Positions 6,251-10,947 of a stretch of 10,947 nt of DNA are shown piece after piece. The DNA lies in IMG/VR virus record IMGVR_UViG_2698536618_000003; one strand, 5' to 3'. The stretch comes from a virus. Taxonomy: Duplodnaviria; Heunggongvirae; Uroviricota; Caudoviricetes. The translations under genes and the position numbers were made by a program. The number at the start of each line of letters is the position of its first letter. The first letter of the stretch is position 1. The notes under the pieces were generated by a model. It was not told where the DNA came from and ran no database searches. It worked only from the letters and a program-made list of their open reading frames with translations.

Positions 6251-6773
6251 ACGAACCCCTGGCAGACATTTGTTTATCTGCAAAGTAATATTGATATTGC
6301 TGACGATACGCATGCTTGAAAGCAATAGCTTTTTCTATAAGCTCGTCAGTCTCACGTTCCACAACAGATGGATCCGCAAAAAGCAGCCCGGACTCCACCA
6401 CATCGCCATATTCTTTGTTTAACCCGGCGATCATGTACGTAATGCTTTTCCCGTCAGTAATTTCACAATACAACCTGAAATCGCTGATCCGGATAGCCTC
6501 CATAATTGCCGGAATCAGCGCCGTGAATTTTTCCCGCTTATCCCTGGTGTCGATAGCTTTCCAGCGTTCGAATATCTTCACCCGGTTAACGCCCAGCGCC
6601 CGTTGATCAACCTCGCCATCATTAAACGTGACGCGTTGAACATCGATGTTCGGGCGTTCTTTCAGAGCCCAGAATGCTTCCGTGATTAATATCGTCGCTT
6701 GCTCCTGTGTCATTCCTGGTCGACATACCCAGGTATCCAGAGCCTCACAAACCTGTTCAGGGGTGATTTTCAT
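6222..6773 (-). CDS. YdaT-like protein occupying the cII position (183 aa)
   Basis: ATG at 6773 overlaps the 3' end of the upstream Cro-like gene by 17 nt. Sits directly downstream of a YdaS/DicC-family gene as in the Rac ydaS-ydaT pair. Family assignment is from context and weak remembered similarity only. Confidence 0.6.
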   Translation of the reverse strand: MKITPEQVCEALDTWVCRPGMTQEQATILITEAFWALKERPNIDVQRVTFNDGEVDQRALGVNRVKIFERWKAIDTRDKREKFTALIPAIMEAIRISDFRLYCEITDGKSITYMIAGLNKEYGDVVESGLLFADPSVVERETDELIEKAIAFKHAYRQQYQYYFADKQMSARGSYEYRCTTMG

Positions 6774-6984
6774 TGTTCAACCGCCCCGCCCGCTTTGCCT
6801 TACGATATTCGTCATAAACTTTGGGGTCGTACTGAAGTTCCCCGCCGGATGCCTCCTGTAGACGCATCGCGCGACCTTCAGGAACCAGTTTCCCCCATGC
6901 AGCAACGCTTGCCAGCCTAACTCCTGCGGCATTGGCAAGCTTTGTTTTGCTGCCAAAAAACGCTATAGCATCAATTTTCAACAT
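6757..6984 (-). CDS. dicC: Cro-like regulator, DicC/YdaS family (75 aa)
   Basis: ATG at 6984 with AAGGAG 7 nt upstream. Small protein divergent from the DicA-like repressor. The motif …LVPEGRAMRLQEASGGELQYDPKVY… is as I recall for YdaS/DicC-family proteins (unverified). Confidence 0.75.
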   Translation of the reverse strand: MLKIDAIAFFGSKTKLANAAGVRLASVAAWGKLVPEGRAMRLQEASGGELQYDPKVYDEYRKAKRAGRLNNENHP

Positions 6985-7060: not shown

Positions 7061-7468
7061 ATGAAAAACGAAACCTTCGGTGCTCGCCTCTTATACAGGC
7101 GTAAAAAATTAAAACTGTCTCAGGCCGCATTAGGTAAGCTGGTCAAAGTGGCTCACGTAACAATTTCTCAATGGGAAAGAGATGAAACACAGCCAGCAGG
7201 GAAGAGATTATTCGCACTGAGCCAGGCGCTCCAGTGCTCGCCGACTTGGCTTCTTTTTGGAGATGAAGATAAGCAACCAGGCGAACCGATCCCAGATAAT
7301 CAGCCAGTTAATCTGACAGAAGATCAAAAAGAGTTGCTTCAACTGTTCGACGCACTGCCTGAGTCAGAGCAAAAGGCTCTGTTGTCAGAGATGCGTGCTC
7401 GAGTTGAGAATTTCAACAAACTTTTTGAAGAACTACTCAAAGCTCGCAAAAGAAGCGCAAATAAATAA
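7061..7468 (+). CDS. dicA: DicA-like HTH (XRE-family) repressor, 135 aa
   Basis: N-terminal HTH (…LSQAALGKLVKVAHVTISQWERDET…). Conserved blocks LFALSQALQCSPTWLLFGDEDKQP and MRARVENFNKLFEELLKAR match my recollection of E. coli DicA. Same length as DicA (135 aa). No SD before the ATG. Confidence 0.85.
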   Translation: MKNETFGARLLYRRKKLKLSQAALGKLVKVAHVTISQWERDETQPAGKRLFALSQALQCSPTWLLFGDEDKQPGEPIPDNQPVNLTEDQKELLQLFDALPESEQKALLSEMRARVENFNKLFEELLKARKRSANK

Positions 7469-7674: not shown

Positions 7675-7827
7675 ATGGATACTATCGATCTTGGCAACAA
7701 CGAATCTCTGGTATGTGGCGTGTTTCCAAACCAGGACGGCGCGTTCACCGCGATGACGTATACCAGAAGCAAAACGTTTAAAACTGAAGCTGGCGCGCGT
7801 CGCTGGTTAACCAGAAACACTGACTGA
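7675..7827 (+). CDS. ydfA: YdfA-like small protein (50 aa)
   Basis: ATG at 7675 with GAGGT upstream. Translation MDTIDLGNNESLVCGVFPNQDGAFTAMTYTRSKTFKTEAGARRWLTRNTD is as I recall for Qin YdfA. The track ORF start at 7621 lacks an RBS. Confidence 0.75.
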   Translation: MDTIDLGNNESLVCGVFPNQDGAFTAMTYTRSKTFKTEAGARRWLTRNTD

Positions 7828-7838
7828 TGAGGTTGACG

Positions 7839-8213
7839 ATGGAATTTAAAGATTTACCAGTACCATTCCAGGAAATGGCATCGAATGTGGTTCGCTCTCA
7901 ACTGGCGACTCTTGACCTGAGTACCGTAGAAAAAGAAACCATCGATAATATATCCGGTAACGTGCGTCGTGCCTTTATCGGACTGTACGAAGAGAAGCAA
8001 CTCTCTGATAACCAGGATTTACATAAAAAATACTTCTTGGAATTAATGGACATCATTGATAAGGGATTTGGCTTGTTAATGAAACAGAAAGGGATTCGAA
8101 TGAACCCCATTGAAAATTACTTCGCAACAAGAAGCATTAATTCCTGTGATTTAAAGCATCCCGCCACAGACGGGAGTGTTACAGTTAGCCATGAGATTTC
8201 GATTAATCATTAA
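7839..8213 (+). CDS. Hypothetical protein (124 aa), AT-rich, unknown family
   Basis: ATG at 7839 with GAGG 6 nt upstream (an alternative ATG at 7827 overlaps the ydfA stop). Codon usage is visibly AT-richer than neighbouring genes. No recognisable motif. Confidence 0.65.
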   Translation: MEFKDLPVPFQEMASNVVRSQLATLDLSTVEKETIDNISGNVRRAFIGLYEEKQLSDNQDLHKKYFLELMDIIDKGFGLLMKQKGIRMNPIENYFATRSINSCDLKHPATDGSVTVSHEISINH

Positions 8214-8424
8214 AATCAATAGCTATTTCAATAAGTGATGCCATCTCGTTGCATTTTGTTGAATTCATCTTACGTAATGAGTCACAAATATCTGATGGTT
8301 GTGATGCTGCTGGCAACTTAGCAGCAAGTAGCATAATTGCCGTTTTTATAGCAGTGAGTTCATCCGCAAGTCCAGCAGGAGAAACATCGTGGTTAAACTG
8401 GATATTTACATTTTTACTAGTCAT
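8203..8424 (-). CDS. Hypothetical small protein (73 aa), convergent with the 124-aa gene
   Basis: ATG at 8424-8422 with GGAGG 5-9 nt upstream. Translation MTSKNVNIQFNHDVSPAGLADELTAIKTAIMLLAAKLPAASQPSDICDSLRKMNSTKCNEMASLIEIAIDFND. Its 3' end overlaps the 124-aa gene by 11 bp. The track ORF extension to 8637 lacks an RBS. Confidence 0.5.
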   Translation of the reverse strand: MTSKNVNIQFNHDVSPAGLADELTAIKTAIMLLAAKLPAASQPSDICDSLRKMNSTKCNEMASLIEIAIDFND

Positions 8425-8759
8425 TTCACCCTCCTGAGGGTTGGTAATTAAGGAGTTCTCCACGGGTGAGGTGGAGTGCGTGCGCCGGACACGGGTGAGC
8501 ATCCGGCACTGACAGTTTACTGAAAGGATATTTCCATGAAAAGTCAGACCATGACGCGAAAGCGCACGGCGAGGTAGCTGGTTCATAGATAACCTGTCGT
8601 TAAATTTTCGTCGACCGTGCGCTTCCGGTTGTGGCACTCCGCGAAATGGCGCGGCGGTAAGTATGGCGGGGTTATTCCTTCCACCGTTGAGGACACCGGG
8701 TTGTCAGGTTGACCATACGCTTAAGTGACAACCCCGCTGCAACGCCCTCTGTTATCAAT

Positions 8760-8812
8760 TTTCTGGTGACGTTTGGCGGTACCAGTTTTACTCCGTAACT
8801 GCTCTGCCGCCT
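8760..8812 (+). ncRNA. dicF: DicF small RNA homologue
   Basis: TTTCTGGTGACGTTTGGCGGTACCAGTTTTACTCCGTAACTGCTCTGCCGCCT differs at about 3 of 53 positions from the E. coli K-12 DicF sequence as I remember it. Ends in a GC hairpin (GGCGG…CCGCC) followed by TTTTTT at 8811-8817. Lies upstream of dicB as in Qin. Confidence 0.75.
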
Positions 8813-9106
8813 TTTTTAAAGTGAATTTTGTGATGCGGTGAATGCGGCTCAGCGCACGCGGAACAGTTAAAACAAGCGGTCTTTTACGGGCGTAACGGGA
8901 ATGCTCTGTATCCGGCGTTAATTGTTAACTGGTTAACGTCACCTGGAGGCACCAGGCACTGCATCAACAAAGTTCACTTCGGTGATGAAGGGTAAGAGAA
9001 AATGTTGAATGTAGCTATTGAAAACCAGAACGGGTGGAATTATAGTGCACCTGCACCTCATAAAGCGGGTGCCGGGCGTGGAAACCCGATGATGACTACT
9101 GCGCAT

Positions 9107-9129
9107 AACCGCGCTCATGCGGTTTTTTT
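9107..9129 (+). terminator. Hairpin plus T-run (possible intrinsic terminator or attenuator) upstream of the Rha gene
   Basis: AACCGC-GCTCAT-GCGGTT followed by TTTTTA. It is nested inside a longer imperfect inverted repeat CGCATAA…TTATGCG (9102-9134). Confidence 0.3.
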
Positions 9130-9298
9130 ATGCGTAATGCACAGCCACATTCAGATTATGGTGGGGCGTGCAGGGCAGCCGAAAGGCTGGCCGGTTTCGG
9201 TAGTCACCGGTATTTCCACCCCTGTACGTCTCACCACCCTTATGGTCGTGGAAAGCCTTGGTGGTGAGTTATTTAAACTGACTATCGAGGCTGCCATC

Positions 9299-9856
9299 AT
9301 GGCTACTATCCATACCCTTTCTCACCCTGACGTAACCATCGAAAATGGACGCGCTGTCACTACGTCTATTGCGATCGCTGAGTTCTTTGGTAAACGCCAC
9401 GAACGAGTGTTGGATAAAATTCGCAATCTGGACTGTTCAGCAAAATTCACTGAGCACAATTTTGTGTCGAGCGAATATACCGACTCAACCGGTCGCAAAC
9501 TCCCAATGTACCAAATCACCAAAAACGGCTTCGTTTTCCTGGTGATGGGCTTCACCGGCAAAAAAGCCGCTGCATTTAAAGAAGCCTACATCGCTGAGTT
9601 CGATCGCATGGAGAAAGAACTGCGCCAGAATAACGCCCCGTCTCCCGACAAAATGATTCACGGGGACGGACGTACCCTGGTTATCCGTCTCGACGAACAC
9701 GGCAATATCAAATTCACTGAAACCGTTCCGGACGGCGCAATGGTCTGCACCCTGGATACCTTCCAGTTTTATCTGGAGAAACAAGGCTGGACTCTTGTAA
9801 ACCGGAGCGCAATTAAAAATATGACTGTGGAGCAATTACTAAAAATTCATTGTTGA
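9299..9856 (+). CDS. Phage regulatory protein, Rha family (about 185 aa)
   Basis: The segment …VTTSIAIAEFFGKRHERVLDKIRNL…YQITKNGFVFLVMGFTGKKAAAFKEAYIAEF… matches what I recall of the Rha (Phage_pRha) domain. Start chosen at ATG 9299 with GAGG about 9 nt upstream. The track ORF is open from 9002, but that extension has odd composition and contains the hairpin/T-run at 9107-9129. Confidence 0.7.
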   Translation: MATIHTLSHPDVTIENGRAVTTSIAIAEFFGKRHERVLDKIRNLDCSAKFTEHNFVSSEYTDSTGRKLPMYQITKNGFVFLVMGFTGKKAAAFKEAYIAEFDRMEKELRQNNAPSPDKMIHGDGRTLVIRLDEHGNIKFTETVPDGAMVCTLDTFQFYLEKQGWTLVNRSAIKNMTVEQLLKIHC

Positions 9857-9866
9857 GGACGAGATA

Positions 9867-10055
9867 ATGGAAACGTTATTACCAAACGTTAATACGTCTG
9901 AAGGTTGTTTTGAAATTGGTGTCACTATCAGTAACCCTGTATTTACTGAAGATGCCATTAACAAGAGAAAACAAGAACGGGAGCTATTAAATAAAATATG
10001 CATTGTTTCAATGCTGGCTCGTTTACGTCTGATGCCAAAAGGATGTGCACAATGA
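9867..10055 (+). CDS. dicB: Cell-division inhibitor DicB (62 aa)
   Basis: METLLPNVNTSEGCFEIGVTISNPVFTEDAINKRKQERELLNKICIVSMLARLRLMPKGCAQ is essentially the E. coli DicB sequence as I recall it. ATG at 9867 with GAGG upstream. Confidence 0.85.
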   Translation: METLLPNVNTSEGCFEIGVTISNPVFTEDAINKRKQERELLNKICIVSMLARLRLMPKGCAQ

Positions 10056-10213
10056 ATTCAGCATTTGCGCTTGTTCTGACAGTTTTTCTTGTTTCCGGAG
10101 AGCCAGTTGATATTGCAGTCAGTGTTCACAGGACAATGCAGGAGTGTATGACTGCAGCAACCGAACAGAAAATTCCCGGTAACTGTTACCCGGTCGATAA
10201 AGTTATTCACTAG
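10052..10213 (+). CDS. ydfD: YdfD-like small protein, ends at an in-frame TAG (53 aa; would be 63 aa to the next TAA at 10241-10243)
   Basis: ATG at 10052 overlaps the dicB stop (ATGA). MNSAFALVLTVFLVSGEPVDIAVSVHRTMQECMTAATEQKIPGNCYPVDKVIH then TAG. The frame continues DNIEIPAGL to TAA, giving the 63-aa length I recall for K-12 YdfD. Confidence 0.7.
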   Translation: MNSAFALVLTVFLVSGEPVDIAVSVHRTMQECMTAATEQKIPGNCYPVDKVIH

Positions 10214-10336: not shown

Positions 10337-10947
10337 ATGAGTAAAGTCTTTATTTGCGCCGCCATTCCTGACGAACTGGCAACAAGGGAAGAAGGCGCTG
10401 TGGCTGTAGCCACAGCTATTGAAGCTGGCGACGAACGCCGTGCTCGAGCAAAATTTCACTGGCAGTTCCTGGAACATTATCCGGCTGCTCAGGACTGCGC
10501 TTATAAATTTATTATCTGCGAGGATAAACCTGGCATACCCCGCCCTGCCCTCGATTCATGGGATGCTGAATATATGCAGGAAAACCGCTGGGATGAGGAG
10601 TCTGCTTCCTTTGTTCCGGTTGAGACTGAATCAGATCCGATGAACGTCACTTTTGACAAGCTGGCCCCTGAAGTACAGAACGCTGTCATGGTTAAGTTCG
10701 ACACATGTGAAAACATCACCGTTGATATGGTTATTAGCGCACAGGAATTGTTGCAGGAAGACATGGCAACATTCGACGGACATATCGTTGAAGCGTTGAT
10801 GAAAATGCCAGAAGTTAACGCCATGTATCCGGAGCTTAAGCTGCATGCCATCGGGTGGGTTAAGCATAAATGTAAGCCTGGTGCCAAATGGCCCGAAATT
10901 CAGGCAGAGATGCGCATCTGGAAAAAACGTCGCGAAGGTGAACGCAA
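10337..10947 (+). CDS. Hypothetical prophage protein, 5' part only (at least 203 aa, continues past window end); position corresponds to ydfE of Qin
   Basis: ATG at 10337 with GAGG about 10 nt upstream. The frame is open to the last base of the window (MSKVFICAAIPDELATREEGAVAVATAIEAGDERRARAKFHWQFLEHYPAAQD…). Not in the ORF track because it has no stop within the window. Confidence 0.75.
   Translation, partial: MSKVFICAAIPDELATREEGAVAVATAIEAGDERRARAKFHWQFLEHYPAAQDCAYKFIICEDKPGIPRPALDSWDAEYMQENRWDEESASFVPVETESDPMNVTFDKLAPEVQNAVMVKFDTCENITVDMVISAQELLQEDMATFDGHIVEALMKMPEVNAMYPELKLHAIGWVKHKCKPGAKWPEIQAEMRIWKKRREGER

Follow-up and report, generated by a model that had tools for sequence, protein, structure and literature searches.

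A predicted IsrK/C4 RNA-gated antirepressor cassette between dicF and dicB of a lambdoid early-left operon

The DNA studied here, a stretch of 10,947 nucleotides (nt) from a virus of the Caudoviricetes (IMG/VR record IMGVR_UViG_2698536618_000003; "the window" below), includes the early-left operon of a lambdoid prophage, which is of the Qin (dicBF) type. Between the gene of the small RNA (sRNA) DicF and the division inhibitor gene dicB, this operon exhibits an extra segment encoding a protein of the Rha family. We propose with good confidence that the segment is a cassette in which two RNAs, one IsrK-like and one of the C4 type, gate the expression of a probable antirepressor, in the manner of the immI operon of phages P1/P7 and of isrK in the Salmonella prophage Gifsy-1.

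Extra segment between dicF and dicB

The gap between dicF and dicB is 1,054 nt long in the window against 174 nt in Escherichia coli K-12 (MG1655). This bears out an earlier annotation of the same DNA (the original prediction), which had noticed about 1 kb in place of the about 200 nt of K-12 Qin, and a Rha-domain gene within it. As that annotation proposed, the window was aligned with a K-12-type locus, that of strain M6, as well as with a locus of E. coli strain C325 (NZ_CP124819) that is 98% identical. The alignment delimits an extra segment of about 875 bp (about 8967-9841), the ends of which are ambiguous by 1-2 nt. The Rha gene had been described as preceded by a structured leader of about 480 nt (8813-9298). 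The stretch is structured, but it is a composite: its upstream part is the ordinary dicF-dicB spacer, and the remainder is the start of the cassette. The suggestion that the insertion adds a layer of control is retained in a modified form, as the extra block would indeed add control, with the "structured leader" being an IsrK-like and a C4-type RNA gene, both Rfam families, with their own predicted promoter.

IsrK-like RNA and its predicted promoter

The first RNA gene of the cassette is a full-length match to the Rfam family isrK (63.6 bits, gathering threshold 50). The predicted IsrK-like RNA is composed of a 5' hairpin (9053-9072), a second hairpin (9073-9088) presenting the segment a1 (GUGGAAA, 9078-9084) in its loop, a single-stranded segment b1 (UGACUACUG, 9093-9101), and an intrinsic terminator with a stem at 9107-9124 and seven T after it (U-run 9123-9129). 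The terminator is conserved among relatives. It corresponds to the hairpin with a T-run that had been reported at 9102-9134; in the fold of a long transcript its outer pairs reach about 9100-9134. The attenuator role then suggested for this hairpin also agrees with our model, in which read-through of the terminator is predicted to give the Rha mRNA.

A predicted promoter (TTGAAA-17 nt-TATAGT) ends 7 nt upstream of the isrK 5' end, and is the only promoter-like site found by a sigma-70-type scan of positions 8600-10100. We base this assignment on its position and conservation and not on the site count. The pattern TTGxxx-17-TAxxxT is kept at this position in every relative, even in those with unrelated flanks, and the window promoter aligns with TTGACA-17-TATATT upstream of isrK in Gifsy-1, where deletion of the isrK promoter abolishes transcription of the operon (PMC4825925). 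In a search for a DicA-type operator, no 8-mer shared with the immunity-region operators was found near the isrK promoter. The sole LexA-like match near this promoter has two mismatches and lies inside C4. The 85-nt block 8968-9052, which contains the promoter and an ATG at 9002, is 94-100% identical among relatives in which isrK, C4 and Rha have diverged to 78-92%; recent recombination or additional regulatory sites could account for this constancy.

C4-type RNA and its target sites

The second RNA gene matches the Rfam family C4 over its full length (79.3 bits, gathering threshold 45). Its fold consists of a closing stem (9159-9175 with 9220-9236), hairpin 1 (9176-9189) and hairpin 2 (9190-9211). 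The loop of hairpin 2 contains the segment b' (UUUCGGUAGUCA, 9195-9206), and the junction contains the segment a' (UUUCCAC, 9213-9219). The sequence CCACC that follows the closing stem at the 3' end is invariant among relatives. Downstream of C4, two further segments, a2 (GUGGAAA, 9248-9254) and b2 (UGACUAUCGAGG, 9279-9290), repeat the arrangement of a1 and b1, and b2 overlaps the Shine-Dalgarno sequence GAGG (9287-9290) of the Rha gene. The configuration GAGG-N8-ATG is invariant, and is abutted or overlapped by b2 in every variant.

Covariation was examined in a set of 37 distinct relatives. For the helices of C4 and IsrK, 96.7% of the cells are paired and 13 pairs have changed on both sides, a result equalled by none of 500 shuffles; slid controls for the C4 fold pair at 38-46%. 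Pairing of a' with a1 and b' with b1 is kept at 95.6%, with compensatory changes in 14 of 16 pairs and a covariation score of 0.714 (0.156 when shuffled, at most 0.13 when slid). The corresponding score of b':b2 is 0.442 against 0.129. The a':a2 pairing was judged by duplex energies, since MAFFT puts a 3-nt indel inside a2 and column counts are unusable there. RNAduplex energies for the two downstream sites of C4 are -14.8 and -10.2 kcal/mol (3 of 1000 shuffles as good). Cognate combinations are better than non-cognate ones by 5.7-9.0 kcal/mol in all four pairings: -9.2 against -1.8 kcal/mol for a':a2, -15.3 against -6.3 kcal/mol for b':b2, the strongest cognate duplex, and -9.1 against -3.4 and -11.6 against -4.7 kcal/mol for the pairings of a' and b' with a1 and b1. 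The loop and the junction of C4 thus co-vary three ways, with the sites inside IsrK and with the sites abutting the Rha Shine-Dalgarno sequence. The 37 sequences contain 8 alleles of a', 15 of b', and 20 combinations of the two.

Beyond C4, the segment GGUGGUGAG (9260-9268) hardly varies among all the relatives. Its complement, CUCACCACC (9230-9238), forms the 3' strand of the closing stem of C4 and is itself invariant. By pairing with each other, the two segments could replace the C4 fold with another structure, comparable to structure B of the Gifsy-1 study; covariation cannot probe this pairing because neither side varies. The minimum free energy fold of the region proposes a local hairpin hiding the Shine-Dalgarno sequence and, over a long distance, base pairs that link isrK to the start codon. 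We did not rely on either element, as the 5' strand, GGUGGUGAG, is invariant and covariation cannot probe them.

Reading frame of the leader

The Rha frame is open through the leader from the ATG at 9002 in about 39 of 43 unique variants (it is broken in loci L010, L044, L058 and L003 of our collection), and the annotation pipeline PGAP calls a 284-amino-acid (aa) Rha family protein from there. The 99 codons upstream of 9299 match the Pfam family Phage_ASH (PF10554; E-value 1.5e-17, score 64.4, gathering threshold 26) as well as N-terminal parts of PHROG families. The open reading frame (ORF) 9002-9856 might then be a real 'Ash'-Rha fusion gene, for which the RNA family matches would be secondary. 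A depletion of stops in frame 0 also favours such a gene, as does the observation that the long ORF of the phage mEp460 and of a Stx1 phage starts right where the upstream gene ends.

We nevertheless regard a fusion gene as improbable. The Phage_ASH match (9041-9295) lies exactly over the isrK-plus-C4 DNA, and this region does not evolve like protein-coding sequence. Among 50 unique relatives, substitutions at the three codon positions number 84/72/172 in Rha, a two-fold third-position excess, against 87/93/92 in 9053-9298. No part of 9053-9298 exhibits such an excess, and we conclude that there is no selection at the amino acid level in the leader. Its variation obeys RNA pairing instead, with the three-way compensatory changes described above. 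Moreover, ATG 9002 precedes the conserved promoter, the ORF runs across an intrinsic terminator, and the equivalent frame of Gifsy-1 is a separate ORF of 45 codons. In phage P4 (locus L092, 8330-8521), the obsolete 'cI protein' ORF has its Phage_ASH match where Rfam places C4. The established immunity factor encoded there is the CI RNA, so that Phage_ASH maps onto an RNA gene in P4 too. Translated RNA genes thus appear to be the main source of Phage_ASH and of the N-terminal regions of phrog_995, phrog_821, phrog_6928 and phrog_3960.

The reading frame is not without meaning in the C4 part of the leader. An AUG at 9158 is part of the closing stem of C4, on its 5' strand, and aligns with the first AUG of Gifsy-1 orf45; 47 codons run stop-free from it into Rha. 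Frame 0 from 9158 is open in 34 of 35 variants, and 2 stops fall in this frame between the AUG and the Rha ATG, compared with 83 and 72 in the two others. For a shuffled segment of 141 nt, the probability of being open in a given frame is about 0.15. When distinct alleles of the a/b segments, which have been replaced repeatedly, are counted, stops in frames 0/+1/+2 number 1/21/21 downstream of 9158, the only part where the depletion is significant, and 2/5/4, with no bias, in the isrK part upstream. This depletion indicates that 9158-9298 is kept open in the Rha frame while its amino acids are free to vary. A purely non-coding leader had been considered, with which the codon periodicity agreed, but the stop-codon analysis of 9158-9298 forced a revision of that view.

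The original prediction left the choice between starts at 9002 and 9299 to proteomics. The start at 9299 has the invariant GAGG-N8-ATG targeted by the C4 loop. The in-frame ATG at 9002 is present but has no specific support; lying upstream of the conserved cassette promoter, it would be usable only on transcripts from the DicA-controlled operon promoter. To these we add the third start, 9158, which the alignment with orf45 suggests is probably used as well.

The Rha protein

The N-terminal part of the protein (aa 21-106) is a Rha domain (Pfam Phage_pRha, 4e-31; 107.9 bits, gathering threshold 29.9). Its C-terminal domain (about aa 100-172) is AnrP-like and matches phrog_2379, a family that includes Gifsy-1 AnrP as a full-length member (3e-98). 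A pairwise BLASTP comparison of the Rha protein with AnrP gives E = 0.005. Among PHROG families, the nearest ones carry the label transcriptional regulator or anti-repressor, and a PDB sequence search with the Rha protein returned no match. AnrP induces Gifsy-1 (PMC4825925). By analogy, the Rha protein is most likely an antirepressor promoting prophage derepression.

In the original prediction, Rha proteins were linked to phage growth interference and the gene was considered as a possible further layer of exclusion. The Rha family is named after rha of phi80, which interferes with growth on hosts deficient in integration host factor, and the neighbouring dicB and dicF have exclusion-related phenotypes; Rha might thus be an exclusion factor added to the DicF/DicB module, and not an antirepressor. 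The evidence makes this a quite unlikely alternative and leaves the link to exclusion unsupported; no PADLOC or other evidence of defence was found, although none was looked for. The best PHROG neighbours are labelled as transcriptional regulators and anti-repressors, the C-terminal domain belongs to the family of an inducer of Gifsy-1, the antirepressors of P1 and Gifsy-1 are governed by the same RNA gate, and in other phages the cassette lies among early regulatory and replication genes. Taken together, the domains of the protein and the setting of its gene argue for an RNA-gated antirepressor.

Model of the switch

According to our model, the promoter at 9018-9046 would make the IsrK-like sRNA, mostly ending at the terminator (9107-9129). 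Read-through, and transcripts from the upstream operon promoter repressed by DicA, would run through C4 into Rha. In the off state, C4, acting in cis or after processing, would cover a2, b2 and the Shine-Dalgarno sequence, and its stem would bury the AUG at 9158. In the on state, an excess of the short IsrK-like RNA, as a decoy or remodeller, would bind a' and b' and open the start regions. Translation would probably enter at AUG 9158, in frame into Rha, and/or begin at 9299. Ribosomes would be delivered to the gene start either way, through the fused leader frame here and through an overlapping ATGA in Gifsy-1. The computation itself supports the two RNA genes and their folds, the covariation in three ways, the conservation of promoter and terminator, selection for the open frame, and the domains of the protein. 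The direction of regulation, the processing of C4 by RNase P and the antirepressor activity are assigned by analogy with the characterized systems.

As in P4 and N15, C4 may in addition bind a1 and b1 while the RNA is still being made, and thereby adjust termination at the IsrK terminator. Taken further, the switch would be mainly transcriptional: C4 bound to a1/b1 would enforce IsrK termination, and the control of the Rha start would be minor. The segments a1 and b1 do lie immediately upstream of the intrinsic terminator, the isrK and C4 families also match the P4 seqA and CI region, and the possibility was raised by the authors of the Gifsy-1 study (PMC4825925). We give this version a rather low rank because all variants have b2 overlapping the invariant Shine-Dalgarno sequence, and because no cognate duplex is stronger than b':b2. 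In Gifsy-1, furthermore, IsrK provided in trans raises anrP translation 139-fold, an effect for which translation of orf45 is required and which is much larger than the 8-fold transcriptional one (PMC4825925). The transcriptional and translational modes are mutually compatible.

Several points weigh against the translational gate proposed here. We infer the promoter, the terminator efficiency, the C4 processing and the direction of regulation from the sequence of this locus. The number of promoter-like sites in the region, one, is not above that of shuffles (1.7), and the Rfam family c4-a1b1 reaches only 24.6 bits in the window (gathering threshold 46.7). AnrP has an ORF6N domain at its N-terminus in place of Rha. 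Pairing of a' and b' with a2 and b2 is no part of the Gifsy-1 model, and joining the P1 and Gifsy-1 models is our own synthesis. Finally, the frame is open 230-360 nt further upstream of isrK in mEp460 (L004 2641-3792) and the Stx1 phage (L005 2773-3795), where it begins at the stop codon of the preceding gene. Our model does not explain this observation; translation from upstream might bypass the RNA gate in these two phages.

Distribution of the cassette

The frequency of the cassette was evaluated in 5,426 complete E. coli genomes. DicF with the spacer is found at 10,365 places in 4,620 genomes, and 665 genomes contain the cassette-specific block of promoter plus isrK, with 763 occurrences. 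Full coverage of the cassette is seen in 396 genomes, and the whole stretch from dicF to dicB is covered to at least 80% in 322. The cassette is a highly diversified minority allele of the dicF-dicB slot, present at roughly 4-7% of loci. By frequency, a Rha gene is therefore not the usual occupant of this position; usual occupancy would have removed the novelty claimed for the arrangement. Nor is the arrangement a one-off, considering the number of genomes in which it recurs. A literature search found no description of a Rha gene located between dicF and dicB.

Full-length relatives of Rha were collected from 85 loci of E. coli, Shigella, Citrobacter braakii and IMG/VR prophage contigs, with 66-100% identity. 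Nearly all of them share the order spacer, promoter block, isrK, C4 and Rha, often followed by dicB. In mEp460 and the Stx1 phage, the unit of isrK, C4 and Rha N-domain is found elsewhere, between cII-like and replication genes, and therefore behaves as a mobile cassette. Other Rha-cassette loci lack dicB and carry unrelated small zinc-motif ORFs downstream of Rha, so that dicB is not an obligatory partner of the cassette. Two of these small ORFs (L070 3102-3493 and L082 3066-3347) end in ...KYCSE(A/I)CAEKDQMAHEL, are zinc-ribbon-like and are unrelated to DicB.

The last three or four Rha codons track the downstream gene, being KIHC* or NIH* with dicB, and SIK*, SLK* or others elsewhere. K-12-type loci have 15 nt of the Rha 3' end in common with the window, but these do not decide the polarity of the insertion or deletion (K-12 as a deletion derivative), because the last codons follow the neighbour and both allele types occur on diverse flanks.

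Spacer and neighbouring genes

Coordinates of the features are given in Table 1. DicF is the upstream neighbour of the cassette and lies outside it, its terminator T-run reaching to about 8818. On the other side, the Shine-Dalgarno sequence of dicB (GAGGA, 9855-9859) overlaps the Rha stop codon (9854-9856), and relatives repeat the same 11-nt spacing between Rha and dicB.

Table 1. Features of the early-left operon in the window
Feature	Position	Strand	Evidence or remark
DicC-like gene	6757-6984	-	
DicA-like repressor gene	7061-7468		Pfam HTH_3
ydfA	Upstream of DicF		Pfam DUF1391
DicF sRNA gene	8761-8812	+	Rfam RF00039, full-length, 70.5 bits (gathering threshold 48)
dicF-dicB spacer common to K-12-type loci	8813-8966	+	Alignment with the strain M6 locus
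Extra segment (cassette), absent from K-12-type loci	8967-9841	+	Three-way alignment
Predicted sigma-70 promoter of IsrK-like RNA	9018-9046	+	Promoter scan, conservation
IsrK-like sRNA gene	9053-9129	+	Rfam RF01394, 63.6 bits
C4-type antisense RNA gene	9154-9241	+	Rfam RF01695, 79.3 bits
orf45-like leader reading frame	9158-9298	+	AUG aligned with Gifsy-1 orf45; stop depletion
C4 target sites a2 and b2	9248-9290	+	Duplex energies, covariation
Rha-family gene (185 aa)	9299-9856	+	Pfam PF09669, 4e-31
dicB (62 aa)	9867-10055	+	Pfam DicB, 1.4e-40
DUF1482/ydfD-like ORF	After dicB		

The original prediction had also noticed the repeat GTTAAC-TG-GTTAAC, at about 8921-8934, and ascribed it to the Rha leader. 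The repeat exists, but its true position is 8924-8937; it is composed of two self-complementary hexamers separated by TG and is not one perfect palindrome. It sits in the spacer common to K-12-type loci, and is therefore unrelated to the cassette. Two hairpins can be seen in the spacer: one, CGTTAA...TTAACG, encloses the GTTAAC repeats, and the other, CCTGG-AGGCA-CCAGG, is located at about 8942-8956. The stretch 8824-8971 also exhibits a sub-threshold similarity to the Rfam family STnc100 (32.3 bits, gathering threshold 47, E = 2.8e-5).

Upstream of the cassette in strain C325 (L001 9183-9266, corresponding to about 8882-8965 of the window), PGAP annotates a pseudogene, 'DicB, incomplete, missing C-terminus'. 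As read from the three-way alignment, the dicB frame of K-12-type loci is open upstream of the dicB ATG. Our guess is that the pseudogene call is an artefact of a longer DicB model split by the cassette and not a second dicB.

At 7827-8637, where K-12 and C325 carry ydfB and ydfC, the window has an ORF of 128 aa (7827-8213, plus strand) and one of 144 aa (8203-8637, minus strand), both without Pfam match; this is another mosaic replacement within the operon. The left end of the window contains a hok/sok-type type I toxin-antitoxin locus (330-504 and 180-392, both minus strand), with an Rfam sok match of 117.5 bits and a Hok-like ORF of 70 aa (hokD in the related strain C325).

Implications

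Under the proposed model, a gene labelled only "Rha family phage regulatory protein" would gain a defined regulatory mechanism, and the dicBF division-inhibition operon an RNA-gated probable antirepressor. In hundreds of E. coli genomes, the 284-aa 'Rha family' calls of PGAP would exceed the gene by about 100 codons, through the translation of two RNA genes. The cassettes also provide a natural set of at least 20 matched a/b variants, usable for studies of antisense RNA immunity specificity and of prophage crosstalk.

A more speculative extension is that the toxic division inhibitor DicB, given the overlap of its Shine-Dalgarno sequence with the Rha stop codon, is under the same IsrK/C4 gate through translational coupling or polarity, and that the a/b combinations serve as an RNA 'barcode' for co-resident prophages. 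We put this forward tentatively, as a possibility that more probably fails than holds. If true, gating of dicB would recreate the trio of P1 immI (C4 RNA, division inhibitor and antirepressor) from unrelated parts, and at least 20 a/b specificity combinations in one chromosomal slot would keep the antirepressors of co-resident dicF-type prophages orthogonal. The b alleles differed in all four co-resident cassette pairs examined, which are too few for significance.

Comparison with known systems

The C4 and c4-a1b1 motifs have been catalogued in gamma-proteobacterial prophages by Weinberg et al. 2010 (PMC2864571). The closest characterized relative of the cassette is isrK-orf45-anrP of Gifsy-1, for which the mechanism of IsrK has been published by Hershko-Shalev et al. 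2016. In that locus orf45 is translated, although it is conserved in nucleotide and not in peptide sequence, and a helix has been validated by the compensatory mutants G28A/C162U and G31A/C159U (PMC4825925). According to our reading of the alignment, this helix would be the pairing of a1 and b1 with a' and b'.

In its predicted parts, the window repeats the Gifsy-1 order of promoter, IsrK sRNA with terminator, C4-like RNA (STnc1160/orf45 in Gifsy-1) and antirepressor gene, which is a probable one in the window; the predicted promoter and the upstream AUG are at homologous positions. Both loci match the isrK and C4 families of Rfam, Gifsy-1 additionally matching c4-a1b1. Both possess a cognate set of a1/a'/a2 and b1/b'/b2 with b2 at the Shine-Dalgarno sequence, and the C-terminal domains of their proteins belong to phrog_2379. 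The N-terminal domains are different (ORF6N in AnrP, Rha in the window): the RNA gate and the C-domain are shared and the N-domain is swapped. The orf45 of Gifsy-1 terminates in an ATGA that overlaps with the start of anrP, whereas the leader of the window is fused in frame with no stop. The Gifsy-1 locus lies downstream of antQ and is followed by isrJ. The cassette of the window is located between dicF and dicB in the early-left operon and has no isrJ after it.

The immI operon of P1/P7 (c4-icd-ant) is reportedly the subject of work by Citron and Schuster in 1990. As in this operon, the C4 antisense RNA and its target are on one transcript, and a' and b' match upstream segments a1 and b1 as well as downstream segments a2 and b2, the latter two lying over a ribosome-binding site. 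Specificity depends on allelic changes in the recognition segments, as between P1 and P7, and the operon holds a cell-division inhibitor. In contrast to immI, the blocked ribosome-binding site of the window is that of the antirepressor-like gene itself, with no icd in between: the distance from C4 to the Rha ATG is 57 nt, and no separate icd-type ORF exists, the 9158 frame entering Rha. As division inhibitor the window has DicB, a protein that bears no relation to Icd and is encoded downstream, not upstream. The segments a1 and b1 are packaged as a terminated sRNA in the window, and the effector domains differ.

The isrK and C4 families also match the immunity region of P4 (seqA-CI RNA-seqC), and both P4 and N15 have a small RNA that, once processed, base-pairs with sites flanking its own gene. 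In P4, and in N15 with its CA RNA of the anti-immunity system, the outcome is premature transcription termination of replication or anti-immunity genes. The downstream site of the window, unlike theirs, overlaps a Shine-Dalgarno sequence, which favours translational control. K-12 Qin (ydfABC-dicF-dicB-ydfD) resembles the window in its DicA- and DicC-type immunity genes, ydfA, DicF, spacer, dicB and a DUF1482/ydfD-like gene, and differs in lacking the 875-bp cassette and in its short dicF-dicB gap.

The locus is accordingly a new example of the known IsrK/C4 system and not a new kind. It is distinguished by its Rha-type effector, its leader ORF fused in frame, the lack of icd, and its residence between dicF and dicB.

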